A stretch of DNA of 64,000 bases from NCBI GenBank assembly GCA_001771535.1, contig MEUB01000036.1, forward strand, positions 842 through 64,841, read 5' to 3'. The notes under the pieces were generated by a model. It searched no databases and was not told the DNA's origin. It saw nothing but the letters and a program-made list of their open reading frames with translations. Source of the DNA: a candidate division WOR-1 bacterium RIFOXYB2_FULL_37_13 (GTDB lineage: Bacteria; Margulisbacteria; WOR-1; XYC2-FULL-46-14; XYC2-FULL-37-10). Below, one piece after another: positions 8,093-57,307 of the stretch (position 1 is the first letter of the stretch; the number at the start of each line of letters is the position of its first letter). The position numbers were made by a program, and so were the translations under genes.

Positions 8093-8320
8093 CTATCTAG
8101 AAATATATCTATTTAAAAAATATTTGAATTACAATTAAAGAAATTTGCACAACAATCAGGCTATCATCACATAATTCAATATAAGTGAAGAATCACAATA
8201 CTGTTAGTCCAATGACTATTCCCATACTGTTTTATAACTTTTTCAAGTTTTTGTTTAGAATCACAAGAAAAAACTTCCTCAAGATTTATCGGTTCATCAT
8301 CCTTATCTTTTGACATTTTA

Positions 8321-41654: not shown

Positions 41655-42749
41655 TTATTTTGAAAGCGCTTCAATTATCTTATCTATGCGATGCCCGCAT
41701 GTATGGCGCGAAAGGACTTTCTTTTGAGCGGCAGATGATATAGTTTGCCTTTCTTTATCGTGTTCCATATAAAAAGCTATCTTTTCTTTTAAATCCTGAG
41801 GTCCTGAAAAAGTAACAATCTCTTTTCCAATCTCAAATAAATCACCAAGATCAGGCCTTAAGTCATCAACCAATTGAAAAGCCCCCAAGCCTCCAAGGAT
41901 AAAAGTCCTGTCATTGGGTGATTTAGCCATAATTTTGTTATTATTGCGATCCATATTGTGGCTAAAGCTGTCACGATGTATATTAAGATTTATTTTTGAT
42001 GCCAATTGATACTTTACGCTTTCTTCATAAGGAACAAACTCTTCTTTTATAAAGCTTTTCAACGTTTCATAATTGCTTAAAGCCCCCTGCCAAGAATCAG
42101 AAAGAACATGCGACCCCAGAAGCTTAACTTTATAGTTTTTTAAAAAACCAGAAAGCTCATCAATTACTTTAACCCTGTAAGAATTTTTAAACGGTGTGCC
42201 GACAAAACAAATATCGCTTTCATAGCTTTTTTCTTTTTGAAAGTTCTCAAATTTTGAAGGAAACGCCAATGGCAAAAAGAAAACATTTTTACACCCATTT
42301 TCCTGATATATAGGAACTGCAGCAGAATCAACCGTAAAAATAAACTCACAAATAGGAGCCATCTCCACGCTCAAATCAGTCCAATATGGGTCGTCAATCT
42401 GCCACATAACCATTTTTCTGCCCAAATCTTTTATTATTTTCAAAACAACCCTGTTTAAATGATGCCCATTCATAAAAAATATAAAATTAGACTTTGAAGA
42501 ATATATCTTTTGAGGGATAAGGGCAGAAGCATATTCTCTTGCAATTTTTATTAACTGATTTAAAGGAGTATCCTTAAATGAGGATTGTAAAAGCTGCCTA
42601 AAAACCAGAGTCTGTTTTGCAAAATCAAAAACTTCAACTTTAATCCCTTTCTCCAAAAAGGCAGCATAAATTACTTCATCCCAAAACTTTTCAACAGGGG
42701 TAATGCCATGCTTTATATAAAAAATTTCCATTTGTGGAGATTCTATCAT
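41655..42749 (-). CDS. CgeB-like glycosyltransferase (Glyco_trans_1_2-type C-terminal domain)
   Basis: C-terminal NDRTFILGGLGAFQLVDD...FSGPQDLKEKIAFYMEHDKERQTISSAAQKKVLSRHTCGHRIDKI resembles CgeB-family proteins. Start uncertain (42758 TTG, 42749 or a downstream ATG). Confidence 0.5.
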   Translation of the reverse strand: MIESPQMEIFYIKHGITPVEKFWDEVIYAAFLEKGIKVEVFDFAKQTLVFRQLLQSSFKDTPLNQLIKIAREYASALIPQKIYSSKSNFIFFMNGHHLNRVVLKIIKDLGRKMVMWQIDDPYWTDLSVEMAPICEFIFTVDSAAVPIYQENGCKNVFFLPLAFPSKFENFQKEKSYESDICFVGTPFKNSYRVKVIDELSGFLKNYKVKLLGSHVLSDSWQGALSNYETLKSFIKEEFVPYEESVKYQLASKINLNIHRDSFSHNMDRNNNKIMAKSPNDRTFILGGLGAFQLVDDLRPDLGDLFEIGKEIVTFSGPQDLKEKIAFYMEHDKERQTISSAAQKKVLSRHTCGHRIDKIIEALSK

Positions 42750-42758
42750 AAGAATCAA

Positions 42759-43154
42759 TTAAACAACAACACCATTTCCTGATGTATCAGGATTAATCAA
42801 TTGACTGCGCATTTGTTTTGCCTTTGATGAAATATTTTCCAACGCGATTAACATTTTATCTATTTCTTTTTTAACAGCGGGATCCGACGAATCCTGTTTT
42901 ATTGTTCGAAGGACACAAATCGCATCTTCTAAATTATTTCCATCCTTAGAACCAGTTAAAAGAGCAACAGCATTTCTTATTTTTTTAGCAATTTCCTTTA
43001 ATTTTTGCTGATTTTCCAGTTTTGCTTCCCCTGTTTCTTTTAAAATCTGAGCCAAAATTTCGTGAAGATCGCGCAATATTTTATTTACCGCCTCGTTGGG
43101 GTCGTTTTTTTCAAAGGCAACCGCAATGTTATTAAGTGACGAAGGATTTATCAT
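42759..43154 (-). CDS. Cluster ORFan, all-helical 131 aa (N-terminus MINPSS)
   Basis: GGGAG RBS 9 nt before ATG 43154. No signal peptide. No family recognised. Confidence 0.55.
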   Translation of the reverse strand: MINPSSLNNIAVAFEKNDPNEAVNKILRDLHEILAQILKETGEAKLENQQKLKEIAKKIRNAVALLTGSKDGNNLEDAICVLRTIKQDSSDPAVKKEIDKMLIALENISSKAKQMRSQLINPDTSGNGVVV

Positions 43155-43187
43155 TTTACTCATCTCCCTTTGTAATCTCAAACATTA

Positions 43188-44807
43188 TTAAACCGCTTCT
43201 CTTATGTCCTGTGGTCCTCCCGGAATCTGAGAATCAAGATGCGATTCGACTTTCAAGCGTTTCATTAGTTTTAAAATTAAAGACAATCTCTTTTCCAAGT
43301 TTGGATTTTGTGCCCCTTTCACCCTATATTCCAAAGACAAAAACTCATCTTTTGCCGCGTCAAATACTTTAATATTGGCAGAGTCGCGCAAACTATTGAA
43401 TTCTGTTTCATCTATTTCCCAACCCAAACGTTTAAGGTTGCTTAAAATACCTTTAATTTTCTGTTCAACCAGCTTAAATGCCGGCCCGGCCAATTCGTAA
43501 AGAGTTCCTCTTTCTTCCAGCGCGGACGAAAGCATGTCAACCAATCTGAGCCTTGCGGCGGCTATCCCCTCTTTTTCTATATCTTTAAATTCATCGCTTG
43601 AAACACCAAGCTTAATTAATCCGTTCTTTAATTTTGTAACTTTAAAATAGGTCGAAAGAACAGTTGCCATATCTCCGGAAATAGCGCGATGCATGTAAAT
43701 GGCCCGTAATCTGTTTATAAAAAGATCTTTTTCGTCTTCTTTTGAAAACTCATAGGGATTCTTTTTGTTTTTTGACTGTGATCCTAAATCCATATCCCCG
43801 GTTCCTAATGGGATATTGGGCGCAAACATACCGATATCAAATTTCTTTACCTGCCAGTCCTGAGAAAATTCGTTTAAATTAACTCCTACCTTTGTAGCAA
43901 GCTTAAGAAGTTCTTTTAATTCATTTGTAATTTTCTTGTCTGTTTCGGCATCGGCAGCCAAATGTTTGCCAATTAACTTTTCTGCCATCTTCTCTTTGGT
44001 GAAATCTTTAAGGTCAGAAAGCATCTCTTTCTTAATTTCGTCCGCGACCCCTTGCAAAGATTCATTGTCATGCAAGCCGGAAAGCAAGGCAGAATCCAAT
44101 ACAGTGTTTAAAGTTTTGTCTCTGATTATAAGGCCAACACTCTTTTCTTTTGTCAATATCTTTTTAAAAAAAGCGTCCTTTATCTGTTCTCTGACATCCT
44201 GGCGCATGGAATTTTTTACAGTTGTTCTTATGGAAATAAGGTCTTTATTGGTAAATCCTTTTTCGCTGAGCAATTTCTCCAAAGTTTCAAGCTTCTTCTT
44301 AATATCCTGTGAATCATTTACGGCGTATTGGGAATAAAGGGCGGCATATTCTTTGACTGCTTCCTGTGTCTTTGCATCAACTGTAATTTTTAATGCCTGG
44401 TCCTGTCCTTTTTGTCCCTTGCCTCCCTGCTGTTTCTTTTGCTCCCCTGCCTTGCCGACAACATTATTTAATTCTACAAAATCATCAAACTTTTCATCTC
44501 CACGGAACAACTGGCTAAGTTCGTCCTCAAGCTCTCCTTTTGTCTTATCAGATAAACGGTCAGGCTTAAGAGAAACACCGGCTGTTGCCAGTTTTGTAGC
44601 CAATCCGGCCAAGATGTCGAGTCCGGCCTTGCTTGCCGTAACCCCGCTTTGAAGGAGTTTGTCGACATCTGATTTCGCCTCAACTTTTCGAGTTGGAAAA
44701 TCAGATGCCGTTTTTTTATCTATCTGTTTAAGTTCAACAGACAAACTATTGCTCAACGCGACAGCCATTTGCTGCGAAGACGCGTTATCTACAATGTTAA
44801 CTCCCAT
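43188..44807 (-). CDS. Cluster ORFan, 539 aa, K/E-rich helical with a Q/G/K low-complexity tract
   Basis: Long ORF with an RBS. No signal peptide or TM helix. GEQKKQQGGKGQKGQDQ tract. Confidence 0.6.
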   Translation of the reverse strand: MGVNIVDNASSQQMAVALSNSLSVELKQIDKKTASDFPTRKVEAKSDVDKLLQSGVTASKAGLDILAGLATKLATAGVSLKPDRLSDKTKGELEDELSQLFRGDEKFDDFVELNNVVGKAGEQKKQQGGKGQKGQDQALKITVDAKTQEAVKEYAALYSQYAVNDSQDIKKKLETLEKLLSEKGFTNKDLISIRTTVKNSMRQDVREQIKDAFFKKILTKEKSVGLIIRDKTLNTVLDSALLSGLHDNESLQGVADEIKKEMLSDLKDFTKEKMAEKLIGKHLAADAETDKKITNELKELLKLATKVGVNLNEFSQDWQVKKFDIGMFAPNIPLGTGDMDLGSQSKNKKNPYEFSKEDEKDLFINRLRAIYMHRAISGDMATVLSTYFKVTKLKNGLIKLGVSSDEFKDIEKEGIAAARLRLVDMLSSALEERGTLYELAGPAFKLVEQKIKGILSNLKRLGWEIDETEFNSLRDSANIKVFDAAKDEFLSLEYRVKGAQNPNLEKRLSLILKLMKRLKVESHLDSQIPGGPQDIREAV

Positions 44808-44819
44808 CTTATTTTCACC

Positions 44820-44996
44820 CTATCCTTTTTTCTTGCCTTCCTCTCCCCAAATGATTTTATTGACCGAGTTTGATTTTAGTTTTTCTGTAAGCCTTGCCAT
44901 CACCACGTTTGACCACTGATTCTGCTGGGCTTTGGAAAGTTTTTCATCAGTAGGTTTCACAGAATCCGAAAGTTTAGGATTATAAGTGCTCGCCAT
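44820..44996 (-). CDS. Cluster ORFan, 58 aa (MASTYNPKLSD...)
   Basis: AAGGAGG RBS 8 nt before ATG 44996. Overlaps the 3-prime end of the GT2-TPR gene by 17 nt. Confidence 0.5.
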   Translation of the reverse strand: MASTYNPKLSDSVKPTDEKLSKAQQNQWSNVVMARLTEKLKSNSVNKIIWGEEGKKKG

Positions 44997-46086
44997 TTGA
45001 ATCAACCTCCTTTTTTAATTGTTCAATCCTAGCCTTTAATTTTGGATCAGGATAAAAATCGTAAGCAATTGTAAATTCCCTCAATGCGTCTTGTTTTTTT
45101 TGACCCATTAAATATGCGCTACCAAGATAAAAATGCGGAAAATAAGTATAATCTTTGATATTAAAACCGTTTAAAGCATTTTTGGGCGGGGATAATTTAC
45201 TTGCGTGCTCAAAAACATGGATAGCATCTTTGGTCTGTTTTGTGAACAGGTAAATAACACCCATCATGTTATAAGCCTCGGCATTAAACGGCTCCAACGC
45301 GATAACTTCTTTTAAGGTTTCAAAAGCTTGCGCGTATTTGCTCTGTTCCATAAGCATCTTTGACATCCTCATCCTTGAGACAACCGAGATAGGATCTTTG
45401 GGCGCAATTGAGACAACCGTAGAATATTCAGAAAACGCGGTTGTCTTGTCTCCAACGTCAAAATAGTTATTTGCCAAAAGGAAGTGGCAATGAAAATCAT
45501 TTTGGTCTTTTTGCAAAGCCTCTTTTAGTATCCGGAAATTTCTCTCCTTCTTTTCCTTTGCCTTCTCCTCACCCAAATCCTTCCCCCAATGAAAAACTTT
45601 AATATCTTGCAAAAATTCCCCTTTGAGCAATTCTCCCGAGGCAGCATAAACCTGCTCATTAAAAGAACGCCCAAAATGAATTCCTTTATTATTTTTAAAA
45701 ACTTTCAGCCTTGAATAAAATCTGGAGCCTTCCTCTGTTCCGAATTGAGCCTGATATATAGGCAAATAATATGCCTCTTTGTCACTCTTCTCTAAAATCT
45801 GGCGAAGCGTATCAAGCGTTTTCTCATTTATAAACTCATCAGCGTCTACCCATATAATCCAATCACCCAAAGCGTGTTTGAGCGATTCATTTCTAGCCGC
45901 CGAAAAATCATCGATCCAAGAAAAAGTATGAATTTTCGCCCCCAGTTTTTTGGCGATTTCAATTGTATTGTCCGTTGATCCGGTATCAACCAAAACAATT
46001 TCATCAACTTTTTTTGCAAGAAGAGGCAAAGTTTTTTCAAGAACTTTTTCTTCGTTTTTTACTATCATACAAACTGAGAGTTTCAT
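44980..46086 (-). CDS. Family-2 glycosyltransferase fused to C-terminal TPR repeats
   Basis: LSVCMIVKNEEKVLEKTL, VDTGSTDNT, WVDADE (DxD) GT2 motifs. The C-terminal about 170 aa has TPR-like repeats. Confidence 0.8.
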   Translation of the reverse strand: MKLSVCMIVKNEEKVLEKTLPLLAKKVDEIVLVDTGSTDNTIEIAKKLGAKIHTFSWIDDFSAARNESLKHALGDWIIWVDADEFINEKTLDTLRQILEKSDKEAYYLPIYQAQFGTEEGSRFYSRLKVFKNNKGIHFGRSFNEQVYAASGELLKGEFLQDIKVFHWGKDLGEEKAKEKKERNFRILKEALQKDQNDFHCHFLLANNYFDVGDKTTAFSEYSTVVSIAPKDPISVVSRMRMSKMLMEQSKYAQAFETLKEVIALEPFNAEAYNMMGVIYLFTKQTKDAIHVFEHASKLSPPKNALNGFNIKDYTYFPHFYLGSAYLMGQKKQDALREFTIAYDFYPDPKLKARIEQLKKEVDSNGEHL

Positions 46087-46476
46087 TTAATTTTCTCCTA
46101 CAGAAACCGATATTCTACTCTTAGTCAAAAATTTTTCTATTTTCTCCTTTTCTTCATTCTGAGTCTTAAAAACTTTCCCAAAATATTTCTTGTACATATC
46201 AAGCAGCCTTTCAGCCCGCTTTATATATATTTCAAGTTTTTCAAGTTTTATCAAAACTTCTTTTTTATCTGTCCCCAATACTTGCATCTCATATTCAATA
46301 TTTGACCTTTCAGAATAAAAAGATAAAAGATGATTCTTTAACGCGTCATATTCCATCTCTTTTATTTTTATCGGATTATAATCATCTTTCACTCCCAGCT
46401 TGTCGGCTTGGATCAAAAGCTGATTTTCAAGCTCTTGAAAAACTCTCATTTGAGCTTTTATTTTTTTACTGCTCAT
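46087..46476 (-). CDS. Cluster ORFan, 129-aa coiled-coil protein
   Basis: Heptad-rich K/E sequence. The stop abuts the GT2-TPR start, and the start overlaps the upstream gene by 4 nt. Confidence 0.55.
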   Translation of the reverse strand: MSSKKIKAQMRVFQELENQLLIQADKLGVKDDYNPIKIKEMEYDALKNHLLSFYSERSNIEYEMQVLGTDKKEVLIKLEKLEIYIKRAERLLDMYKKYFGKVFKTQNEEKEKIEKFLTKSRISVSVGEN

Positions 46477-47024
46477 ACAATTTTTGCCCCCGTAACAATC
46501 CCAAACAATGCCTTTTCACTTGCGACCTGTGCCAGGCCATTTTTAACAGCAATATTTTTTTCTTCTCTTGCTTTTGACATTAATTTTTCTATTTCAGCAG
46601 GGCTTATGCCAAGCAATCCCATTTGAAAAGTAATTACCCCAACCCCCATTTTAGAAAGTTCGGCCACAAAAAAATTATGGCTGAAAGTATCCATTGCAAG
46701 CTTAACCATCTTATTTTTAAGAACCTGCAAAGTTTTATCCCTGAATCTCAAATTATTATTTTTTGATAACGATTCAACTTCATCTTCTGCCAAAGCCGAA
46801 GATGCGGCGGCAAGATAGACGGTATCCTGCATTCCGACTTTATAAGTTTTGCTTCCATCTTTTCCCTCAACTGTTTCCCACACTAAAGAGGACATTTGTT
46901 GTGTCCCTTCGTTCTGTTTTTCTTTGGGAACTTCTTCTTTTAATTTTTGGTATGCGGCTTTTTGCGCCGAGAACATTTTGTCCTGGCTTAAATTAGCCGC
47001 AATTGTTGGCGCTTCATATGCCAT
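46473..47024 (-). CDS. Cluster ORFan, 183 aa
   Basis: GGGGAAGG RBS. First gene after promoter P4. No family recognised. Confidence 0.55.
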   Translation of the reverse strand: MAYEAPTIAANLSQDKMFSAQKAAYQKLKEEVPKEKQNEGTQQMSSLVWETVEGKDGSKTYKVGMQDTVYLAAASSALAEDEVESLSKNNNLRFRDKTLQVLKNKMVKLAMDTFSHNFFVAELSKMGVGVITFQMGLLGISPAEIEKLMSKAREEKNIAVKNGLAQVASEKALFGIVTGAKIV

Positions 47025-47047
47025 AAATTATACCTTCCCCTATGTAT

Positions 47048-47075
47048 AAATCGTATTAAATAGGGAAAAACTTGC
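47048..47075 (-). promoter_or_regulatory. Sigma-28-like promoter P4
   Basis: Minus strand GCAAGTTT-TTCCCTATTTAA-TACGATTT. The -10 element ends 23 nt before ATG 47024. Confidence 0.55.
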
Positions 47076-47108
47076 ATTTAAACTAAGAAATAAAAAGAGG
47101 ATTAACCT

Positions 47109-49388
47109 TTACTTGTTTTTCTTTTTCTGGCCGCCCTTACGTTCTTCCATCCGTTTTCGCTGCACTTTAGAACTTGACTCCTTATTTCCCATTTTTTGTA
47201 ATTCTTCTCTTCGTTTTTGGGCTTTGGCCGCGGATTGAGCAATTCCGGCCCTGATCTCGGCATCCTTTTTTTGTTCTTGACCTTTATCAATGGCTTCCTG
47301 ATATCTCAACTCCATTTTTCTCTCATGGTAGGCTGCCATATCTTTTTTATAATCCAGGCGGTCTCTCCTATTGCGGACATTGTTAGCAATTGTTCTGCCG
47401 ACATCCTTGTCACCAAATCTTAAAAGCCCCATAACATCGTAAACCGCCCAGTTATTCATATTAACAGCTTCATTGCCATTTTCATCATAAGCAATTCCTG
47501 ACCTATTTCCTGAAAGATTTATTCCCATAAGCTGTGAAGGAAAATATTTTGGATGAGGCCCTCCGGAATCACTGGCTATTTTATTGTTGTTTGGGCCATC
47601 TTTAATCGTTGACGATGTTTCACTATCAGGATTCCAGATACTGCCTTTAGCGCTGTAAAAATCCCACCCCGCACGTTTTCCCAGTTCGTTGTCATCATTT
47701 TTCGTTCTTATGTAAGGCTGAGAATCATAAACACTACCATAACTATCGGTATTAGGGTTTGGATTGTCTATTCCAAAATATTCATACATCAGATTTTGAA
47801 CGTCACCTTGATATTCATCTATTCCGTAATAATCGTCATCATCTACTCCTTGATAATTTTCATCTTTCGCAAGCGACCCAAGATAATTTTTATATGTTTG
47901 CGTATTATTATATAGCCAGTCGTTAAATCTTATAAACGCCAGCTGATCTTTACCCGAAAAGAGCCATCCCGGAAGTCCTCCGCTTTTATCGGTCGGCTTA
48001 AAAAGAAATTCCGAGGGATTAAATCCATACGCGGGAAAAACTGATCTGAAAGAATGCTGCATAGAAATAAAAAGGTTAAGAAAAGCAAGATTATGCGAAT
48101 CTGCCATAAGCCCTCGCATAGGATCAGAACGCCATTTATCAAAAGAGCCGCGCAACGCGGCATCATCTGGAGTTGCTGTTACTGTTACCGTCCCATCGCT
48201 ATTGGTAACATATGTCAAACGGCCTATATCGCTATTGCTCCCAAAGATCTCTGTCATGGCGCTATAAATTCTACGGCGTGATTCGAGCATTCCAAGCATC
48301 AGCTTAAATGCCCCTTCCCCATGATCTCCAGCTTGCAGGTCATAATCAAATAGGCCGCTATTAAAAGAATCGCGTCCTGTGGTAAATGTTTCGCCATCTC
48401 CGCTTTTCCAGTTATTATTGTTATTCCAGTCACTGTCTCCCTTCCATCTTATGTTTTCCCCATCGGTAACCCCATCGCTCCCTGCCTCAATTTTTGCCCC
48501 TTTTTTAAATCCCGACATTATAATTTCATAGTAACTTTCGTCTCCATAATCTTCAAGATTTTTTAAAATACCGTCAGATAATGCTTTAATCGGAGTTCCT
48601 TTTTTTTCTTTATCTTCTTTATTGTAAAAATTGAGCCCTTCATCCCAAATATCAGAATAGGTTTCTGGATTAAAAATTCCCAGTGATAATGGGTTTAAAA
48701 AATGAAATAAATTATCGTAATTTATAGGGCCATTAAGAGATGAGCCCTGATACGTCTCAATAAGATCATGAGCTTTTTTTTCAATTCCATAATGTTTCTT
48801 GTCATTTTGATTAACATCGAAGTGGTTGAATTGGGATACTGACGGATGAAAATCTAGGTTTTCCGCCCTACTCCCTTCAAAAAATCCCCAAGGCAACCCA
48901 TCCCCCTGAGTTCTTGGAACTCTATGCCATGAGCCAAAGTTATCTCTTGTATATCCACGCCCTGCATCGCTATCCCAGACATCGTTAAAACGGGTATGCA
49001 CAGGATTTCCATCTTCATCCAACAGATAATACGGATTTTTATCGTCAGTCCCGTTCCATTGCGGAATATCCTCAGGATCTCCTTCCCATAAAGTCGGAAG
49101 TGGATCGTTGCCCTCCCAAAATGAAGAGCCTTCCGCATATCCGAATTCCGTCAAAGCATCGTAAAACTCTTCTGATGATTCTCCCGCGTAACCTACCTGT
49201 TCAAATCTTGGCAGAAATTTCATCATCTCCATAAGAAAATTAACGCGGCTGCCCAGCCATTGGAAAGAAGAGGGAGTTTCAACCCCATCATGGAGATAAA
49301 ATCTGGAATAATCAGGATTGTCTACTTTCAACGGCTTACGAGGTTTTGGCAGTGTCTCACTATTTCCAAAGGAGTTCATAAAAAACAT
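47109..49388 (-). CDS. Cluster ORFan, 759 aa, acidic W/Y/D/N/G-rich body with an about 90-aa K/R-rich C-terminal tail
   Basis: AGGAGG RBS. No signal peptide or TM helix. The tail ends ...KAQKRREELQKMGNKESSSKVQRKRMEERKGGQKKKNK. Confidence 0.65.
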   Translation of the reverse strand: MFFMNSFGNSETLPKPRKPLKVDNPDYSRFYLHDGVETPSSFQWLGSRVNFLMEMMKFLPRFEQVGYAGESSEEFYDALTEFGYAEGSSFWEGNDPLPTLWEGDPEDIPQWNGTDDKNPYYLLDEDGNPVHTRFNDVWDSDAGRGYTRDNFGSWHRVPRTQGDGLPWGFFEGSRAENLDFHPSVSQFNHFDVNQNDKKHYGIEKKAHDLIETYQGSSLNGPINYDNLFHFLNPLSLGIFNPETYSDIWDEGLNFYNKEDKEKKGTPIKALSDGILKNLEDYGDESYYEIIMSGFKKGAKIEAGSDGVTDGENIRWKGDSDWNNNNNWKSGDGETFTTGRDSFNSGLFDYDLQAGDHGEGAFKLMLGMLESRRRIYSAMTEIFGSNSDIGRLTYVTNSDGTVTVTATPDDAALRGSFDKWRSDPMRGLMADSHNLAFLNLFISMQHSFRSVFPAYGFNPSEFLFKPTDKSGGLPGWLFSGKDQLAFIRFNDWLYNNTQTYKNYLGSLAKDENYQGVDDDDYYGIDEYQGDVQNLMYEYFGIDNPNPNTDSYGSVYDSQPYIRTKNDDNELGKRAGWDFYSAKGSIWNPDSETSSTIKDGPNNNKIASDSGGPHPKYFPSQLMGINLSGNRSGIAYDENGNEAVNMNNWAVYDVMGLLRFGDKDVGRTIANNVRNRRDRLDYKKDMAAYHERKMELRYQEAIDKGQEQKKDAEIRAGIAQSAAKAQKRREELQKMGNKESSSKVQRKRMEERKGGQKKKNK

Positions 49389-49411
49389 AATCTGCCTTCC
49401 TCCTGATTTTT

Positions 49412-49735
49412 CTACATTGAACTTAAGCGATCTTCAAGTTTGCGCACATTATTCCAAATATCCAAAATCGCGGATTGCGCCTGATCTATTTTTGCCATGC
49501 GATCTTCAAGCAGCAATGATGTTGAAGAAGAATTTACATTTGCTCCGTTTACATAATTATTTCCTATTTTCAAAGTTTTAGTAGGATCCGGATTCACTGA
49601 TAATTCCGCGTAATTTTTTATAAGATCAGCCATTTCAGTATAAAAACTTTTAACAGTTTTTATAACGTCCACATCAGGTGAATGATTGATCTCCCCTCCC
49701 AACGGTGAAAAAAATTTAACATTAAAAAATGCCAT
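49412..49735 (-). CDS. Cluster ORFan, 107 aa, helix-loop-helix-like
   Basis: AAGGAGG RBS. Predicted N- and C-terminal helices flank an N/S-rich loop (VNPDPTKT...NVNSSSTS). Confidence 0.55.
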   Translation of the reverse strand: MAFFNVKFFSPLGGEINHSPDVDVIKTVKSFYTEMADLIKNYAELSVNPDPTKTLKIGNNYVNGANVNSSSTSLLLEDRMAKIDQAQSAILDIWNNVRKLEDRLSSM

Positions 49736-49758
49736 TTTTTTATTCCTCCTTTTATATC

Positions 49759-49817
49759 CTCTTCTAAAAAATCAATTATCTGTTTTTTTAGAAGAGCCCC
49801 CCGGCAAGCCGGGGGGC
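49759..49817 (-). other. Twin stem-loop element between the 102-aa and 107-aa genes
   Basis: 9-bp GC-only stem GCCCCCCGG-caag-CCGGGGGGC (49796-49817) plus a 13-bp arm pair CTCTTCTAAAAAA / TTTTTTAGAAGAG (49759-49771 and 49784-49796). No 3-prime U-tract on either strand. Confidence 0.7.
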
Positions 49818-49836
49818 TAGAAAAAAGTTTATAATA

Positions 49837-50145
49837 TTAGCTTCTAACAATTTGACGGGTCCTTTCCGCCATTTGATTCTTCTTGGATACAGCGCTTGCA
49901 GCTGTCTGCTCAATTGTCGATAGTTTACTAAGATAACTATCTAAAACAAGAGCCCCTCCACCACTTGATACGTCTATGTCTGTCCCTCCAACATTCACAT
50001 TTATTGTTGTGTCTTCAATCGTATCATTCTCCCCATCAACTGCAATAGCACTTTTGATATCTTCCATCAGTTGATCTATGCTATTATCACAAGAACTTGC
50101 CACATCATAAGCATTCTGTTCAATCGTATTAGGAGTATCTGCCAT
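49837..50145 (-). CDS. Cluster ORFan, 102 aa, acidic
   Basis: AGGAGGTG RBS. Helical N- and C-termini flank a G/D/T-rich middle (NVNVGGTDIDVSSGGGAL). Confidence 0.55.
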   Translation of the reverse strand: MADTPNTIEQNAYDVASSCDNSIDQLMEDIKSAIAVDGENDTIEDTTINVNVGGTDIDVSSGGGALVLDSYLSKLSTIEQTAASAVSKKNQMAERTRQIVRS

Positions 50146-50186
50146 ATATTCTCACCTCCTTTTACACACATATAGTCTTAAACCGT

Positions 50187-50444
50187 CTACACCAATGTAT
50201 TAACATTAAAGCCCCGCATACCAAGTTTATCTGCTATCGCGTGAAATCTGTTAACTGAGATATGTCCTTCCTGTACAAGGTTTTGCATAATTTCAAACTT
50301 ACCAGCCTTGCTGGTAGAAGAATCTTTGGCCAGATAGGAGGAAAGATCGGAAGTCACGCTTGAATTGGAATAAGTAGACCCGCCGGATTCTTCCATATCC
50401 ATCTGCGGCATAGTTACTGTTGAATTTGAAGCTGGGTTTATCAT
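50187..50444 (-). CDS. Possible FlgM-like anti-sigma-28 factor (85 aa)
   Basis: S/T-rich, probably disordered N-half. C-terminal KFEIMQNLVQEGHISVNRFHAIADKL parallels the FlgM C-terminal pattern (kVaalKaaIasGtYkvDaekIAdkL; compare B. subtilis [26 protein letters not shown]). Sits directly behind sigma-28-like promoter P3. Confidence 0.35.
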   Translation of the reverse strand: MINPASNSTVTMPQMDMEESGGSTYSNSSVTSDLSSYLAKDSSTSKAGKFEIMQNLVQEGHISVNRFHAIADKLGMRGFNVNTLV

Positions 50445-50454
50445 TGCATTACAT

Positions 50455-50482
50455 ATATCGTAGCGGGGTAAAAAAAACTTGC
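50455..50482 (-). promoter_or_regulatory. Sigma-28-like promoter P3
   Basis: Minus strand GCAAGTTT-TTTTTACCCCGC-TACGATAT. Only 10 nt lie between the -10 element and ATG 50444, with no SD (leaderless geometry). Confidence 0.55.
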
Positions 50483-50491
50483 ATGAAAAAA

Positions 50492-50785
50492 TTATTTGTA
50501 GGATTTATCATTTAAAATATTTTTTATTTTTGAAAGGCGCTTAAAAATATTTTTAAGACACTCTTCTTCTTCGTCTATTTTCGGCTCTTTTTCCCAATCA
50601 GCCTTTAATCTAGCCTTGCTCATGTCTGACGCGTAAATTTCGTTGCCGCGAACAACTTTATCGGCGCGCAAAATAAATCCGCGCAGACTTTGCAGAAAAT
50701 TTTGTCCGTTTATTTCCTGCGGCTGGCTTTGTTTTGTTTTTATATCATTTAAATTAAGTGCTGCGTTTATTTTATTTACTTCCAT
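50492..50785 (-). CDS. Cluster ORFan, 97 aa
   Basis: Start ATG overlaps the stop of the 1523-aa gene (TAATG), suggesting translational coupling. Confidence 0.55.
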   Translation of the reverse strand: MEVNKINAALNLNDIKTKQSQPQEINGQNFLQSLRGFILRADKVVRGNEIYASDMSKARLKADWEKEPKIDEEEECLKNIFKRLSKIKNILNDKSYK

Positions 50786-53700
50786 TATACTAGCCCTCCT
50801 CCGATTGTAGGCCTGTTTTTCTGCTCTAAAGATGAAAGAGCCGCCATTTCTCCTGTTTGCGCTAAATAGAGCTCATAAGGATTCTGCCTTCTTCTGTTGT
50901 TGTCCTGGCCTTTAGATGGAGATGGCGCTGAGTTTACAGATATCCCAGCATCTTGTGAGCCGCTTAAATCAACAGGGATTACTATTTTGTCTTTGTCATC
51001 ATCCCTCGCAACTTTAAGATGAATATCCCTTTGTTTGACAGAGTCCTTGATATAATCAGCCGAGCTTTTGGAGGTATCCCAAATATTGTTTAATATATCA
51101 TCATTTTGTTGAGAGGTAATCTCGCGAGCCTCCATTTCAAGATCAATAGCGCCGGATGTGAGCGCGCTTGCGAGAGAATTGCTTTCTGACTTATTAACTC
51201 CCGCGGCCCATCCCTTTTGGTTTGAGCCTGAAGTTTCTGATCTGATTTCAGATAAATAGGCCTCTCTTCTTTCTATCCTCTCTTCTCTTGCCTCTTTAAC
51301 ACTCTTGCGCTTTCCACCGCTTGCGAACCCTGAATCATAAATAATACCAGCCAGTAAAACCGCTATATTCTCCGTTAACCCTCCTATAAACTGGTATAGT
51401 CCTAAGTCCTCGTACTGCTTAATATGTTCATTATACGCAAACATTTTTTTATCATTTTCGGACTTAATGTTTTCTATATCAGCATTAATTTTTCTATACT
51501 CATTAGCAAGTTTTTTATATGAAGACTCATCCCCTCTCGAATAAGCCTCATCCGCGAATTTCCTTTTTTCTTCCGCCAAAATTTTCTTGTCTCGCGCGAC
51601 TTTTTCAGCTGTTTTCATGTTTTCTATATTCTCCCGATAGTCCTCTCTAAGCGCCGCTGTTTTATATACAAAAACCAGATTAACCAAAGAGATTGACGCG
51701 GCAATCAAGCTCTGTACCATTGCCCGCTTTGCAAAATTCATCTGGTTATGGCGCTCAACAATTGTCAAGACATTCTGATAAAGGGTACCTATATTTGCCA
51801 TAGCAGAAGCCTGTTCCGATGAAAAAGCGTCTGTCGCGTTTCCAACTCGCCCTCCCGCACCAGATAAAGTAGCGTGAATTGAGGCTCTCATTTCTGCCTT
51901 TGCTTCCTGCAATTTTGCCAACACGTCACGAATATTAAAAATCCTCTCCATTTTATGACGAAATAATTCTACTACTCCGCTATTTACACCCCATCTGCCC
52001 GCCCCCAAATCTTCTATAATATCCATTGACATATCTTTGTATAATTCCATTTCCATCAATTCAAGATCATCAAGTGTCGAATCTCCAGAATGTTCTTCTT
52101 TTAATCTTTCGGCAATTTTTTCAGGGTCGTATTTTTCTATTTCACGCCCTCGCCTGCTGCGGATTGAATTGATGATAAAATCATAACCGGCATTAGCAAT
52201 CCCCATCATAGGAGAAATAAAGGCAAAAGCTATTTGCGAGTAATTTATCCCAACACCGGCGCAAGCGGTAAGAATCGCAATATCAATTCCCAGTTTAAAT
52301 GAAGCATCAATTATATTTTTTCTTGAATCTAAGGCTCTCTTTTGAGTTTCAATTCTTTCTCCCAAGAACTGCACTAAATTATCAAAAACTTTCAGCTTCC
52401 CTTCAAATTCAGCTCTGTTAACATCGTGAGAAAGCTTCCCTTCTCTTCTTCCGGAAACGCCTGTCATTTCGAGATGGACAAGATTTCTCATTTCTGTTCT
52501 TGCTTCATTTAGAGTCGCCAAAATATTTTGGATGTTGGCAAGGCGGGTTAAAATATCTCTAAGCTTGGCAACATATCCTCCATTTAAACCCCAATATCCG
52601 TCACCAATATCTTTATTTATCCCGTTGGTAAATAACTCTTCATAAACTCGCGCTTCAAGGCTTGCCATACGGGCTTGCGTTGAATTCGGGTTATTTTTTC
52701 TAAGGGTTCTTAGATAGGCGGGAACGCCATCATCCCCATAACTTGAGCCAAAAGAGCCCATCGTCAATTCATATAACAGACTGGAAGTAAATCCGCCTAA
52801 AGCGCCACCGACCCCCCAGCCTATATAAAAAAGTCTTGTTGAAAGACTTGCCGTAGCTTCTGTAGCAGCCCTTGTCCCAGCTTCCAAACCTTCTTCAGCA
52901 AGTTTGCCGCCTTTATCTAAAAGTTTCCCTAATAACCCTCCAAAGGCAGCGCAGACCCCTTGAATAACAAGCGAAAGAGCAAAACTGTTTACGGCGCCTG
53001 CCATTTTTTTATCTTTTGCAATCGCCATATTTTCGGCGTTTTTATATTCATTTAACATAAAAGTCAAAGTATCAAATTTAAACTGAGCTAAGCGCGCATC
53101 AGATTCAACCGCGGCATCAACATAGGCAGAAGATTCCCTACCTCCAACTCCTGTCATTTCCATATGAACCAGATTTCGCATGGAATTTTTTTCTTTACTT
53201 AAGGCAACAATAACTCTTCTTATATTTTGAATTTTTACCAATTGGGTTTGCAGTCTTGCTATCTCCTCAAAGTCTATTTTCTTGAATTCTTCGGATGCCC
53301 TATCTGTAAACCAGTTGCCGGGGTTTGCATTAGACTGTGTCCACCACGATCTAACCCTGCCTTCATCGCTATCCTCATCCTGAATCATACTCTCATCATT
53401 TTGAACAATAATGCCATCTTCCATATTGGAAGTACTATTCATAATATCAAGCATGTCGTTTCCTGTATCTGTATCAGCTTGATCTCCCGTATCGTATGAA
53501 GGAATATCCGGCACATATCCCTCTGTCATAGAATTTGCGACAATTGCGCCTGCCAGTTTTACTCCCGCAGCCAATACGCCAAGTATCAAGCCCGCAACAG
53601 GAACAAAAAATCCGACTACTATCGCAGCTACAGAAAGAAAATTCGAAATAACATTAAAAACCCGCTGTACTTTGGCTTTTTCTATTTCTCCTTCCAGATA

Positions 53701-55356
53701 TTTGACATTGTTTTCAAGCTGCATCTTTTGCTGAGTAAGCCTGATATTTGTCTCAAAAAGTTGAGTTTTATGCTGGTCTTCCATTTCTTGAAGTCTTTGC
53801 GCGTTACTGTTGCTCTCTCTGCCTCCGACCCCTGTCATCTCTTTGTGAACCATGTTGCGCGTTTCCTGTTTCGCGCCTCTTAACATGTTTAACGCTTTTC
53901 TTATATTTTGCAAACCATAAAATTGTTTGCGTATTTTAACAAGTTCATCTTCATCAAGTTCCCAATAACCATTATCCCCTTTATAGACAATATTCGGGAT
54001 ATCAGCAAAGATAGCCATTTCTCCATTTTGCAACGCCTCATCAATTTTTGCGGGGTCACTTTCTATCTGCAAAGAGCCATCTTCCTCTTTATCAGTCGTT
54101 TTATTTAACAAGTCAAGAACTGTACTCATCGCTCTTAAATATTTTTCAACAGCTCTTTTTTGCATTTCAAGACTCATTTCCGTGTTGCTGCCGCCGGTTA
54201 TGGCATCTGTTGCCTGATTCCAGAGGCCATCCGTTGTTGCCTGCGCCGCGGCGACCTCCGCATCAACAATGGCCTGGTTATAATCCATCATCTCTTCAAG
54301 AAGTTTGCCAAACGCCACGCTGACTCTTGCCAGCCTGTTTTGTACTTCTTTGGCAATAATTGTTTTGGTATCCATTCCTTTCATGGGAGTAAGGCCAAGC
54401 AGCTCTTCCACCACAAGATTATACATATCATCTTTCGCTTCCGTCAGCATTTGGAACATAATAAGCAGCCCGCAAAGAAAGCTGACTTTTTCATACCAAT
54501 CAGCCAAACGATCCGTATCAACAACCATCATTCCATCATCGTTGTAATAATAAAAATCATCAGGATCATAATTATTTACCGCGTTATCCAGCTCGTTGCT
54601 GACAGCAACCACAGTCTCCGCTGTTGAACTATTTTCATCTAAGGCCGCAAGATACGAATATTCATAAACATAAGAGGTATCCCCATTTTCATATTGTTGC
54701 TGATGCAGCCATTGGTCAAAATTATATTGGGCGGAATGCTGAGTATTGGCATCCCATGATTCTTCAAATGTTTCGATCTCTTTGCCGTCCTGATAAACCA
54801 GTATTGCATCTTCTTCTCTAGTTGAGGCAGAGGTATCTTTTCTATAGTGGGAATTTACAACCATATAACCGTCATATTTTTTTGATTCTTCTTCCAGATA
54901 AGCCTGCGCCGCTTCTTCACTGTCAAACGTAACTGTAGTTCCATCAGGGTTTGTAATTGTTACCGTAGTCTCTCCTGTAGTATCCACATAAGTAGTCATA
55001 TCATATTCAGCTGAAACATCGGTACTGGCAGATTGGCTCTCAGTTGTAGAAGTTGACGAAGTTGTTGATGTCGTTGATGCAGTTGAAGCAGTCTCCGCAG
55101 ACTGAGAAGATGAAATATAATTAGGGTTATCTTCCGCAAGATTTAAAACTGGCTCACCAAAAACAACCTGACTTTGCGCACTGTTCAAGCTTGAACGAAT
55201 TGAAGAAACATCAACAGATATAGAAGAATCAACTTCAGGCACTTCTATCTTTTCATCAAGAAGGTATGGAGGAGTTACACCCGCGCCACCAATTTGGTCA
55301 GATTCAAGCTGGTCAGAAAACTTTTGTACTTCAACAATTTGATAGAGGTTTCCCAT
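50785..55356 (-). CDS. Giant modular membrane protein (1523 aa) with four to five repeated helical-plus-hydrophobic-hairpin modules
   Basis: Repeated motif NxVHxEMTGVGGRES at 53812-53856, 53131-53175, 52441-52485 and a degenerate SIHATLSGAGGRVG at 51841-51882. Each is preceded by GYW-x-LN...NIR/Q...L..EA and followed by a coiled coil and a 40-50-aa bilobed hydrophobic segment. S/T tract at 55021-55113. Confidence 0.75.
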   Translation of the reverse strand: MGNLYQIVEVQKFSDQLESDQIGGAGVTPPYLLDEKIEVPEVDSSISVDVSSIRSSLNSAQSQVVFGEPVLNLAEDNPNYISSSQSAETASTASTTSTTSSTSTTESQSASTDVSAEYDMTTYVDTTGETTVTITNPDGTTVTFDSEEAAQAYLEEESKKYDGYMVVNSHYRKDTSASTREEDAILVYQDGKEIETFEESWDANTQHSAQYNFDQWLHQQQYENGDTSYVYEYSYLAALDENSSTAETVVAVSNELDNAVNNYDPDDFYYYNDDGMMVVDTDRLADWYEKVSFLCGLLIMFQMLTEAKDDMYNLVVEELLGLTPMKGMDTKTIIAKEVQNRLARVSVAFGKLLEEMMDYNQAIVDAEVAAAQATTDGLWNQATDAITGGSNTEMSLEMQKRAVEKYLRAMSTVLDLLNKTTDKEEDGSLQIESDPAKIDEALQNGEMAIFADIPNIVYKGDNGYWELDEDELVKIRKQFYGLQNIRKALNMLRGAKQETRNMVHKEMTGVGGRESNSNAQRLQEMEDQHKTQLFETNIRLTQQKMQLENNVKYLEGEIEKAKVQRVFNVISNFLSVAAIVVGFFVPVAGLILGVLAAGVKLAGAIVANSMTEGYVPDIPSYDTGDQADTDTGNDMLDIMNSTSNMEDGIIVQNDESMIQDEDSDEGRVRSWWTQSNANPGNWFTDRASEEFKKIDFEEIARLQTQLVKIQNIRRVIVALSKEKNSMRNLVHMEMTGVGGRESSAYVDAAVESDARLAQFKFDTLTFMLNEYKNAENMAIAKDKKMAGAVNSFALSLVIQGVCAAFGGLLGKLLDKGGKLAEEGLEAGTRAATEATASLSTRLFYIGWGVGGALGGFTSSLLYELTMGSFGSSYGDDGVPAYLRTLRKNNPNSTQARMASLEARVYEELFTNGINKDIGDGYWGLNGGYVAKLRDILTRLANIQNILATLNEARTEMRNLVHLEMTGVSGRREGKLSHDVNRAEFEGKLKVFDNLVQFLGERIETQKRALDSRKNIIDASFKLGIDIAILTACAGVGINYSQIAFAFISPMMGIANAGYDFIINSIRSRRGREIEKYDPEKIAERLKEEHSGDSTLDDLELMEMELYKDMSMDIIEDLGAGRWGVNSGVVELFRHKMERIFNIRDVLAKLQEAKAEMRASIHATLSGAGGRVGNATDAFSSEQASAMANIGTLYQNVLTIVERHNQMNFAKRAMVQSLIAASISLVNLVFVYKTAALREDYRENIENMKTAEKVARDKKILAEEKRKFADEAYSRGDESSYKKLANEYRKINADIENIKSENDKKMFAYNEHIKQYEDLGLYQFIGGLTENIAVLLAGIIYDSGFASGGKRKSVKEAREERIERREAYLSEIRSETSGSNQKGWAAGVNKSESNSLASALTSGAIDLEMEAREITSQQNDDILNNIWDTSKSSADYIKDSVKQRDIHLKVARDDDKDKIVIPVDLSGSQDAGISVNSAPSPSKGQDNNRRRQNPYELYLAQTGEMAALSSLEQKNRPTIGGGLV
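51700..54430 (-). repeat. Intragenic protein-level repeat modules (201-230 aa period) of the 1523-aa gene
   Basis: Motif spacing is 681, 690 and about 603 nt. An earlier, more degenerate module lies near 54370-54425 (DMYNLVVEELLGLTPMKGMD). Confidence 0.7.
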
Positions 55357-55364
55357 TGATCATT

Positions 55365-55392
55365 ATATCGAAACAAAAAGGGGAAAACTTGT
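55365..55392 (-). promoter_or_regulatory. Sigma-28-like promoter P2
   Basis: Minus strand ACAAGTTT-TCCCCTTTTTGT-TTCGATAT. 8 nt lie between the -10 element and ATG 55356, with no SD (leaderless geometry). Confidence 0.55.
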
Positions 55393-55439
55393 ATGGTTTT
55401 TATTGATTTACAGGGGAAAACAAAACCTGTTTTAATTAG

Positions 55440-55658
55440 TTATTTTTGCAGGTTTTTCAACTGTTCCTGCAAGGTTTTTTTCGCATTTTCAAGCTCTTTG
55501 TTGACGGAGGCAATTTTATTGTCAAGTTTTTTGATATCTTCTTCGGCTTTTTTCTTTATGAGTGTATAGCGTATAATTTGAAAAGTATTATATATTATAA
55601 AGGCGACTCCCACCCCGACAAAAAATGTCACCCAATTTATAGTTGTTAAAAATTCCAT
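55440..55658 (-). CDS. Cluster small bitopic protein (72 aa): N-terminal TM helix plus coiled coil
   Basis: INWVTFFVGVGVAFIIYNTF TM helix, then a K/E heptad region. AGGAG RBS. Confidence 0.55.
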   Translation of the reverse strand: MEFLTTINWVTFFVGVGVAFIIYNTFQIIRYTLIKKKAEEDIKKLDNKIASVNKELENAKKTLQEQLKNLQK

Positions 55659-55680
55659 TTTGTTCTCCTATTTTACTCCA

Positions 55681-56037
55681 TCACACATTACTGTCAACTA
55701 CGGGATTATCCGCCGTAGGATTGCCGGCCATAGGGATAGAAAGGTCGCCGGATTCTTTTTCTTCTCTTTCAACTTTAACACGTGATTCATGCGCGCCAAA
55801 TAAAAATTCCGCCACAAGATCAAGAAGGCTTTTAGTCGCGGTCGCATGCATTTTAAATTCCAAGGTATCTATTTCTGCTCCTTCAGGAGTATACCTGTTA
55901 GTCACAGAAGTTTGTAACGGCTCATCAACAAGTTTCCGTTTAGCAGCCTTAATTTCACCGGCAAGGTCAGGCTCATATTTAATTGCTTTACTATTTCCAC
56001 TCTTCGGATTCATTGATATCGGCGATGTATAAGCCAT
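55681..56037 (-). CDS. Cluster ORFan, 118 aa (MAYTSPISMNPKSG...)
   Basis: AAGGAG RBS. No family recognised. Confidence 0.55.
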   Translation of the reverse strand: MAYTSPISMNPKSGNSKAIKYEPDLAGEIKAAKRKLVDEPLQTSVTNRYTPEGAEIDTLEFKMHATATKSLLDLVAEFLFGAHESRVKVEREEKESGDLSIPMAGNPTADNPVVDSNV

Positions 56038-56060
56038 TTCCCTTCACGCTCCTTTTTTCC

Positions 56061-57230
56061 CTAACTTCCTCCGCTAACAGGAACCGGAATATCCGCAGCA
56101 TATTTATTAAGTGTATCAATCACCCACTCTGTTCCTTGTTTTTCATAATTTTCAAATATCAGATCGGTAACATATTTCCCTTCAGGGGTTACTGTCTTTG
56201 CGTCAAAGTTAATCGCATCAATCCGTTCTGCAAGACTTTTCTCTTTTGCCCATTTTCTAAACCGTTCAAGATTCTTTTGATACCCTAACAATTGATCAAT
56301 ATCTCTTTTTAAGCTCTTGTAATCTTTCATGTAATCTTTATTCTGGTAATAACTCTGTAAAATAGGAGCAAAACGGTCTACGGCCCATTTATCGGCAAGC
56401 ATAAGTTTGTTTATTGTAGGATAACCAAATTTTTTGCCCGCGTCTTCAATAAACGAATTCGTAAGACCCATGGTAAACAATTTCCAGCCTTCAGAATTTA
56501 ACTTGTCAAAGCTTTGAGCAGGTTCGTCACTGCCAACAACAGAAGCAACAGCCGCATAGTGAAAAGCATTACTAACTGCGGTATTTCCCAAATCAGCATT
56601 GCTCCAACCCATTTCTTTTACTTTTGATGTCATAGTCCTTGCAGAAATAATTACAAGATATTTGGTTTCCGCAAGCTGCTTAAATGACCGCTCTCCTGTT
56701 AAATCCATTGAACTCAAAGTATCTTTCAAGATTATAAGAAGTTCATTTCTGTCCTTGATATTCCCTTTCCCAAGAGTAATATCATCCCAGAATTTTTTTG
56801 TAGTTTGAACCCCCAGCAATTTATCAAATTCTTTCTGATTCATGCCATCCGTTTTAAATGCCAAATCAAGAGAGGCAGAAACATTTGCTTCCTGAAATTT
56901 TTTATCAGGTCTTATCTGTCCAAGGAATGAATAAATTTGATGATCGAGAGTTGTAGGTATCGGGATATCTCCACTTGCTGCCGCGTCAACTCCACTTTGG
57001 GGAGTAACTATTCCTGGCGCTATATTTCCGCTGGCAGAAGAAGAGGTTCCGGTCGGTTCTATTTCGCCCGCAGAAGAAGTCGCTGAAGTTGACGGCAAAT
57101 AAGAAGAAAGAACCGAAGTATCAGTTCCCAATTCAACTCCGGGCATATTTCTGCCGCACCCGTCCACTACAAGATTTACATTTCTTGTCGGTTGTTTTGG
57201 CGCACTGGTTACAGGAATAAAAAGAGCCAA
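56061..57230 (-). CDS. Cluster ORFan, 389 aa with an S/T/G/P-rich N-terminal region
   Basis: TTG start with AGGAGG 7 nt upstream. S/T tract at about 56975-57119. No signal peptide. Confidence 0.6.
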   Translation of the reverse strand: MALFIPVTSAPKQPTRNVNLVVDGCGRNMPGVELGTDTSVLSSYLPSTSATSSAGEIEPTGTSSSASGNIAPGIVTPQSGVDAAASGDIPIPTTLDHQIYSFLGQIRPDKKFQEANVSASLDLAFKTDGMNQKEFDKLLGVQTTKKFWDDITLGKGNIKDRNELLIILKDTLSSMDLTGERSFKQLAETKYLVIISARTMTSKVKEMGWSNADLGNTAVSNAFHYAAVASVVGSDEPAQSFDKLNSEGWKLFTMGLTNSFIEDAGKKFGYPTINKLMLADKWAVDRFAPILQSYYQNKDYMKDYKSLKRDIDQLLGYQKNLERFRKWAKEKSLAERIDAINFDAKTVTPEGKYVTDLIFENYEKQGTEWVIDTLNKYAADIPVPVSGGS

Positions 57231-57279: not shown

Positions 57280-57307
57280 TAGTCGAATCAAGCTTTAAAA
57301 AACTTGC
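57280..57307 (-). promoter_or_regulatory. Sigma-28-like promoter P1
   Basis: Minus strand GCAAGTTT-TTTAAAGCTTGA-TTCGACTA, 49 nt upstream of start 57230. Confidence 0.5.

Follow-up and report, generated by a model that had tools for sequence, protein, structure and literature searches.

A small Saganbacteria protein behind a conserved sigma-28-type promoter and its tentative likeness to the anti-sigma factor FlgM

Introduction

FlgM (PF04316, K02398), represented together with Aquifex sigma-28 by the structures 1RP3 and 1SC5, is the reference point for exported anti-sigma-28 factors, and intrinsically disordered FlgM proteins are typically poorly conserved. Small secreted negative regulators are also found in injectisome-type type III secretion systems (T3SSs), as with Pseudomonas ExsE and Yersinia LcrQ/YscM, and in Streptomyces the sigma-28-family factor WhiG, which governs non-flagellar genes, is controlled by RsiG, an anti-sigma factor unrelated to FlgM. 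Here we describe a gene for an 85-amino-acid (aa) protein, read from the minus strand at 50187..50444 of a 64,000-nucleotide stretch of Saganbacteria (candidate division WOR-1) DNA (contig MEUB01000036.1; the whole stretch is hereafter called the window), which an original prediction from the nucleotide sequence had assigned to FlgM. Our analysis confirms the sigma-28 (FliA)-type promoter ahead of this gene as a genuine conserved element, with FliA dependence predicted from its sequence, and does not support homology of the encoded protein to FlgM.

The 85-aa protein has several features in common with FlgM, namely a similar size, no signal peptide, an unstructured N-terminus, a helical C-terminus and a position behind a sigma-28-type promoter in a genome for which FliA is reported. 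The order of genes at the locus, a small protein followed by further small proteins and a large protein, recalls flgM-flgN-flgK, although the neighbours are not flgN, flgK or flgL. In the window species only, the protein also carries a local FlgM-like string, G-x-I-x-V-N-x4-IADKL; on the other side, there is no similarity to FlgM by hidden Markov model (HMM) or profile-profile comparison, the FlgM signature is missing in all orthologues, and FlgM lacks the C-terminal NVNT-x-V tail conserved in the family described here.

ExsE and LcrQ/YscM resemble the proposed function in concept, being small, mostly unstructured and linked by their export both to the finished apparatus and to transcription, but they act on AraC-type activators through chaperone cascades and not on a sigma factor, and no sequence relationship to the 85-aa protein is expected. 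RsiG provides a precedent for an anti-sigma factor other than FlgM acting on a FliA-family sigma factor, but it is larger, folded, dependent on cyclic di-GMP and not exported.

A conserved sigma-28-type promoter

The FliA promoter of E. coli reads TAAAGTTT-N11-GCCGATAA, and the SigD promoter of B. subtilis TAAA-N15-GCCGATAT. The sequence upstream of the 85-aa gene, ATGCAAGTTTTTTTTACCCCGCTACGATAT, ends 10 nt before the ATG and contains, on the minus strand at 50455..50480, a -35-like AAGTTT (50480-50475) and a -10-like CGATAT (50460-50455). Across the window, AAGTTT-N(10-14)-CGATA was observed three times where 0.23 occurrences are expected, and none of 100 shuffles reached three. When the spacing is set to 14 and no more than one mismatch is allowed, the intergenic sites on the minus strand number three, all within the cluster of about 16 genes that holds the 85-aa gene, and these precede a 1523-aa open reading frame (ORF), the 85-aa gene and a 183-aa ORF. 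The copy before the 1523-aa ORF (55365..55390, minus) lies 8 nt from its ATG, while that before the 183-aa ORF at 46473..47024 (47049..47073, minus) has CGATTT as its -10 element. A degenerate fourth copy, ATGCAAGTTTTT-N-CGACTAT (57281..57305, minus), stands before the first gene of the cluster (56061..57230), and two related loci, L009 and L010, carry perfect promoter copies at this position.

Seven syntenic Saganbacteria loci (L007, L009, L010, L011, L013, L014 and L015) were recovered through the 759-aa protein of the cluster. Together they hold 24 sites of the form CAAGTTT-N14-CGATAT with identical spacing (consensus cAtGCAAGTTTtt-N-CGATATAT), all of them sense-oriented and upstream of cluster genes, with four to five sigma-28-type promoters per syntenic locus. 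A copy of the motif precedes the 85-aa gene or its orthologue in 6/6 species. The original prediction, which had placed a sigma-28-like promoter immediately ahead of this gene, is in this respect borne out by conservation in all six species and by the 24 sites in seven loci, and the accompanying question, whether orthologous clusters always keep the gene first in its unit, is answered in the same direction, since in each of the six the gene directly follows such a promoter as the first of its unit.

With class III (FliA/SigD) flagellar promoters these sites share identical AAGTTT and CGATAT cores and a strictly fixed spacing, and here multiple copies occur per gene cluster. The differences lie in the distance between AAGTTT and CGATA, which is 13 nt in the E. 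coli class III promoter and 14 here; in the start of the -35 element, which is TAAAG in class III promoters and GCAAG here (C for the first A); and in the region ahead of CGAT, where class III promoters have GC and no conserved GC is seen here. Two of the copies, unlike class III promoters, also stand only 8-10 nt from a start codon.

In the window, the -10 elements of the 85-aa gene and of the 1523-aa ORF lie 10 and 8 nt from the start codons, without a Shine-Dalgarno sequence (50445-50460 and 55357-55370), and these short gaps imply that both mRNAs would be leaderless or nearly so. Orthologues in L009, L010 and L014 have longer leaders, some of them with a Shine-Dalgarno sequence, and in L009 and L014 the orthologues of both this gene and the giant ORF have short leaders with GAGG/AGGAG.

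Downstream, at a distance of 41 nt, lies a gene for a 102-aa acidic orphan protein (49837..50145, minus), which is preceded by a Shine-Dalgarno sequence but lacks a separate promoter in the window species; its orthologues in L007, L011 and L014 each have their own promoter copy. It is followed by a GC-rich 9-bp hairpin, GCCCCCCGG-CUUG-CCGGGGGGC, and then UCUUCU (49796..49817, minus), which a simple terminator scan missed because the U tract is imperfect. The hairpin is a probable terminator of the two genes, which are probably co-transcribed as a bicistronic unit with the 85-aa gene first.

A small protein family restricted to Saganbacteria

The ORF at 50187..50444 has an ATG start and 85 codons and encodes exactly the sequence quoted in the original prediction, and the plus strand opposite it has no overlapping ORF of at least 40 aa. 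Public gene callers place the start at Met12, which yields a 74-aa protein (entry P0001); we prefer the 85-aa start because MINPASNSTVT, the eleven residues ahead of Met12, is conserved among the orthologues (MINETTNSTVS, MAIDPAT...). The protein is acidic (pI 5.5), with neither a signal peptide nor a transmembrane (TM) segment.

Positional orthologues of 85-94 aa, alignable over their full length, are present in at least five other Saganbacteria contigs (L007, L009, L010, L011 and L014), and the family as a whole ranges from 85 to 99 aa. A profile search with the orthologues retrieves nine proteins only from 5.8 billion clusters (about 10 members among 15 billion proteins), none of which is named or annotated in Pfam. 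With the window's protein as query, an exhaustive phmmer search of 1.84 billion cluster representatives returned the protein itself and one low-complexity match, a word-indexed protein search returned only the protein itself, and a sequence search of the PDB returned nothing. The low-complexity match, a 740-aa protein (P0002) aligned to the S/T-rich stretch, was rejected as a relative. Identity between the window's protein and the other family members is 13-36%, against 38-56% in neighbouring cluster families, making it the least conserved protein of the cluster.

Its small size and the lack of any database family could also be explained by a chance, non-functional ORF between real genes. We regard this as exceedingly improbable, and the positional orthologues have in effect already refuted it, since the ORF has kept its place in six species although the proteins around it are only 38-56% identical, changes its length by in-frame insertions and deletions in the S/T-rich stretch with both termini conserved, and has its own conserved promoter. 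It is a genuine gene, and its product is a fast-evolving small protein found only in Saganbacteria.

All family members begin with M-(A)-I-D/N, followed by an S/T-rich stretch of variable length. The conserved segments are SYxLRD, KFExL, IA and, at the extreme C-terminus, G-x-NVNT-x-V, of which the tail NVNT-x-V is the best-conserved part of the family. In the window's protein the first 30 or so residues are S/T-rich (10 S/T in 30), and AlphaFold (AF2) leaves residues 1-27 unstructured and places helices at 28-40, 46-58 and 64-73, with pLDDT values of 73-86 in the helices and 64-69 overall; supplying the 9-sequence family alignment did not improve the confidence. The original prediction had described the N-terminal 45 aa as S/T/N-rich and disordered, and while the S/T-rich and unstructured character stands, the AF2 model limits it to about 27 aa.

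Hydrophobic tails ending in Val recur in several unrelated families of the cluster. Besides G.NVNT.V in the 85-aa protein (50187-50210), these are LFGIVTGAKIV in the 183-aa family (window 46473-46505), (R/K)EAV in the 539-aa family, GVVV/GTIV/GVLV in a family of 124-140 aa (window 42759-42790) and GM.I.NTIV in extra small genes of L009 (~8450-8686) and L010 (8522-8731). From its sequence, the common Val-ending tail may serve all of them as a signal for docking, export or assembly. Paralogy between the 85-aa family and the extra small genes in L009 and L010 was also considered and rejected, as hhalign gave no support and only a tail of 4-5 residues is common to both.

Homology to FlgM at the family level

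The check put forward with the original assignment, a scan against PF04316, gave nothing at E<=10 for the window's protein or its five orthologues, while the same tool recovered E. coli FlgM (from NC_000913.3) at E=1.8e-9 and 38 bits. These six members likewise showed no T3SS needle, flagellin or hook-associated Pfam match at E<=10, an NCBIfam scan of the window's protein found no match at E<=10 either, and no alternative fold emerged for it.

For more sensitive comparisons, the FlgM reference set comprised annotated records from E. coli, Ralstonia, Pandoraea and Burkholderia, Aquifex FlgM (1rp3_B, checked at every residue), a fragment of 9wsf_B as it stands in a printed alignment, and B. subtilis FlgM, which matches PDB FlgM chains at about 1e-4. 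Aligned by hhalign, the 9-member family gave a probability of 1.3% against this set (P=0.042, 15 columns, in the wrong register) and of 1.2% against the four proteobacterial FlgMs, compared with 37.6% (P=3.4e-4, right register) for Aquifex FlgM (1rp3_B) against the same four. The window's protein alone was aligned to the set in the register of the original prediction (KFEIMQNLVQEGHISVN to KVEALKLAIRNGELKMD), with a probability of 0.5% and P=0.12. An hhalign comparison with -glob was discarded as an end-overlap artefact.

On an unfiltered home-made FlgM HMM, the window's protein scores 7.6 bits over 57 positions, again in that register (E=0.8). Only one of the 1,657 segments obtained by six-frame translation of the window and five loci ranks above it. 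Whole-sequence shuffles reached this score in 0/1000 and 4/2000 cases and C-terminal shuffles in 11/2000, and the match is not significant in the database sense; leave-one-out controls with FlgM proteins gave 27-59 bits. The eight relatives score between -1.3 and 2.1 bits and are matched or beaten by 151-874 of 1000 of their own shuffles. The signature G-x-[YFL]-x-[VIM]-[DNS]-x3-[IV]-[AV] occurs in 7/7 FlgMs and in 1/9 family members, and this one, the window's protein, needs an extra residue to fit (a 4-residue spacer); the Gly that is invariant in the FlgM set is K, D, N or S in the orthologues. Both the relatives' scores and the distribution of the signature weigh against an FlgM-like role. 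BLASTP of the window's protein against E. coli FlgM produced no in-register alignment and is uninformative, because phmmer with E. coli FlgM misses Aquifex FlgM too. None of the four further small orphan families in the cluster matches the FlgM profile, and a match of a 57-aa family to the FlgM HMM (E=0.2) was rejected, since only low-complexity N-terminal columns were aligned.

The C-terminus of the window's protein does, at 7.6 bits, follow the sigma-28-binding pattern of FlgM as originally described, and the pattern is absent in the eight relatives. By these sequence comparisons, the resemblance is somewhat above chance for the window's sequence alone and is not a property of the family, and a chance match among about 70 window ORFs would look exactly like it. 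Homology to FlgM is not supported, and the original assignment is not sustained, with PF04316, hhalign, the signature and the relatives' HMM scores all negative while the controls work.

A true but very divergent member of the FlgM family, related by common descent, would be a special case of the FlgM-like mechanism discussed below. Its attraction lies in the in-register alignment to the FlgM HMM (7.6 bits, empirical P about 0.002-0.005 against the protein's own shuffles), in the M-x-I-D/N N-termini found in both families, and in a divergence among FlgMs so large that E. coli FlgM fails to find Aquifex FlgM by phmmer. We nevertheless consider such descent improbable, as no comparison made with the whole family is positive although the controls work, the orthologues do not retain the Gly that is invariant in FlgM, and a signal in one of nine members is what chance would give with roughly 70 ORFs first read.

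Flagellar genes of the lineage

RIFOXYC2_FULL_37_10, or Saganbacteria RX8B (1.78 Mb, 37% GC), is taken as the genome of the window (PMC6349859). Supplementary Data 2 of that study scores KEGG orthologues (KOs) in 46 genomes, 26 of them Saganbacteria, and FliA (K02405) is scored 'reliable' in RX8B (PMC6349859 Supplementary Data 1 and 2). The original prediction had named a missing PF04316 match combined with a genome devoid of FliA as grounds for abandoning it; the first of these was found, whereas FliA is reported in the genome. RX8B and nearly all 26 Saganbacteria have FliA, FlhA, FlhB, FliR, FliF, FliE, FlgB and FlgC, and likewise FlgG, FlgH, FlgI, FlgE, FlgA, FliJ and FliN (PMC6349859), a set that covers the export gate, rod, L/P rings and hook. 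FlgM (K02398), FlgN, FlgK, FlgL, FliD, FliK, FliG and FliM are scored absent in 26/26 Saganbacteria, and FlgM, FlgN, FlgK, FlgL and FliD are present in Margulisbacteria in the same table, while FliC and FliS have no entry in their KO rows for any of the 46 genomes, which makes these rows uninformative (PMC6349859). Such a gene set would amount to a hook-basal body without genes for a torque ring or filament, and the text of PMC6349859 makes no comment on it. In the literature searched, no link of Saganbacteria to FliA regulons, FlgM or type III secretion was found.

Possible functions of the 85-aa protein

As a tentative reading, and the leading single hypothesis, we suggest that the 85-aa protein is an FlgM-like exported anti-sigma factor, by analogy or homology; it would be a functional analogue of FlgM and not a demonstrable homologue. 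Encoded by the gene that opens a short unit behind a FliA (sigma-28)-type promoter, the protein would bind a sigma-28-type factor in the cytoplasm through its C-terminal helices, and on completion of the basal structure its unstructured N-terminus would allow a flagellar-type type III gate to export it. Export would free the sigma factor, allowing the CAAGTTT-N14-CGATAT promoters, the gene's own included, to fire. The cluster itself is most simply read, from its gene content, as a late (post-hook, class-III-like) module of an atypical flagellar-type apparatus of the lineage, because FliA and a hook-basal body without recognisable late genes coincide with a cluster bearing sigma-28-type promoters and glycosyltransferases. 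Glycosyltransferases of this kind accompany flagellin glycosylation. We only infer sigma binding, export and the late-module reading.

The anti-sigma idea is kept because of the protein's size, disordered N-terminus, C-terminal helices and own sigma-28-type promoter, and among the proteins of the cluster it is the one whose size and order/disorder architecture best resemble FlgM. In its favour are also a divergence typical of disordered regulators, a private promoter in every species and the need of a genome with FliA for an anti-sigma-28 factor. Besides the relatives' HMM scores and the missing signature, several points count against it. Four other small orphan proteins of the cluster are likewise candidates, and the 64-kb window contains no sigma factor gene. 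The unrelated extra small gene of L009 and L010, which has its own promoter copy, shares the tail of the 85-aa protein (...NTIV), a hint of a docking or assembly peptide more than of a sigma-binding helix. A canonical FlgM may, moreover, be encoded elsewhere in the genome. FlgM is also scored absent in Melainabacteria that have FlgK, FlgL, FliD and FlgN (PMC6349859), so that its absence from the KO table is weak evidence.

Equally possible, if doubtful on its own, is a late export substrate without regulatory function. As a small subunit of structural or accessory kind, such as a tip, adaptor or minor filament component, it would leave through a flagellar-type type III gate and assemble through its C-terminal G.NVNT.V tail, its S/T-rich N-terminus possibly O-glycosylated by the glycosyltransferases of the cluster. 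Such a protein would account for a strong promoter of its own in every species and for the lack of a signal peptide at a surface- or appendage-like locus with three or four glycosyltransferases. It would also fit the C-terminal motif that recurs in another family of small genes with a promoter copy of their own (…GM.I.NTIV), the hydrophobic …V-COOH tails of other cluster families, and the missing canonical post-hook structural genes (FlgK, FlgL, FliD) of the lineage. It is harder to reconcile with a conservation weaker than that of any other protein in the cluster, since this would be unusual in a subunit that polymerises, or with the lack of any needle, flagellin or hook-associated match at E<=10, and export and glycosylation enter this account purely as inferences.

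A cytoplasmic partner-binding protein of the cluster (such as an export chaperone, adaptor or co-regulator for one of the large orphan proteins), sigma-28-dependent and neither an anti-sigma factor nor exported, seems to us rather unlikely. Type III chaperones are typically small and acidic, and the acidity (pI 4.1-5.5), small size and helical C-terminal half seen here, with a gene that always adjoins other small orphan genes and the giant ORF, would suit such a role; type III chaperones are, however, as a rule dimeric folded proteins of 120-160 aa that lack a long disordered N-terminus. The remaining probability falls to other roles.

A wider and quite improbable scenario is that Saganbacteria possess a flagellum-derived type III apparatus that no longer has the FliG/FliM torque/switch ring, hook-filament junction, cap or canonical FlgM. 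The orphan cluster would be its sigma-28-controlled late module. Among the products would be a translocon- or anchor-like giant protein built of four repeat/TM-hairpin units and novel substrates glycosylated in the cytoplasm, and the 85-aa protein would be secreted and act on sigma-28 as an anti-sigma factor without relation to FlgM. If true, the flagellum would have been re-purposed a second time, independently of the injectisome. An anti-sigma-28 role for the 85-aa protein would provide a second FlgM-like solution without detectable sequence ancestry and a handle on FliA control in a never-cultured candidate phylum, whereas an ordinary late substrate would mean that an attractive but unsupported FlgM annotation has been corrected. 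The promoter motif marks about 16 conserved orphan genes as the probable FliA regulon of Saganbacteria, and with so short a list of candidate genes, what the apparatus builds or secretes becomes directly testable. The sigma-28-marked cluster of orphan and glycosyltransferase genes is a more remarkable object than the 85-aa gene alone.

The surrounding cluster and the remainder of the window

The syntenic cluster spans about 16 kb on the minus strand (41655..57230), as delimited by synteny across the Saganbacteria loci. In order, it encodes proteins of 389 aa, 118 aa, 72 aa (TM/coiled-coil), 1523 aa (the repeat/TM-hairpin giant) and 97 aa, then the 85-aa protein, followed by proteins of 102 aa, 107 aa, 759 aa, 183 aa and 129 aa, a glycosyltransferase with GT2 and TPR domains (44980..46086, minus), proteins of 58 aa, 539 aa and 140 aa, and a CgeB-like glycosyltransferase (41655..42758, minus). 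The two glycosyltransferases are assigned by Pfam/NCBIfam, and none of the other genes between 57230 and 41655 has a Pfam/NCBIfam assignment; with the threshold relaxed to E<=10, the scans of the neighbours brought up nothing informative beyond the glycosyltransferases. The expectation that the promoter-controlled genes look non-flagellar is upheld, as Pfam/NCBIfam scans at E<=0.01 of 71 cluster proteins from six species revealed no flagellar family, only glycosyltransferases and scattered single weak matches.

The cluster is apparently restricted to Saganbacteria. Profile and single-sequence scans of GTDB species-representative contigs with the 759-aa protein recovered no locus, the NCBI assemblies that encode this protein are RIFOXYC2_FULL_37_10, RIFOXYD2_FULL_36_8 and GCA_040961595.1, and a metagenome scan adds only one new contig, which is short and distant.

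The 1523-aa orphan (50785-55356, minus) contains four internal repeats of the form ...NIR..L..L...MRN.VH.EMTGVGGRE..., each followed by a hydrophobic hairpin of about 40 residues. It has no signal peptide, its orthologues measure 1549-1848 aa, and L011 has two such genes. In every species the 183-aa gene (46473-47024) combines a strong Shine-Dalgarno sequence with the promoter copy that is best conserved. It overlaps by 4 nt with the downstream 129-aa gene (46087-46476), and the two could encode a major subunit and a chaperone for it. In L009 alone, a PF05635 (23S rRNA-intervening-sequence-protein) gene is inserted in the cluster (7887-8252), just upstream of the extra small gene and the orthologue of the 85-aa gene.

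Outside the cluster, large ORFs of 1067, 406 and 684 aa (13240-16443 and 22680-25951) have no Pfam match at 1e-5 and no promoter motif, and no rRNA, tRNA, sigma-factor or flagellar gene was found in the 64 kb. The rest of the window is housekeeping DNA of low GC content (about 36%) from a diderm, with LptF/G, three aminoacyl-tRNA synthetases, trp genes and Pta, along with ORFs encoding an integrase core (rve) and HTH_21 at 30002-30862 and 31341-31985, which look like an IS3-type insertion sequence and a second, truncated copy.

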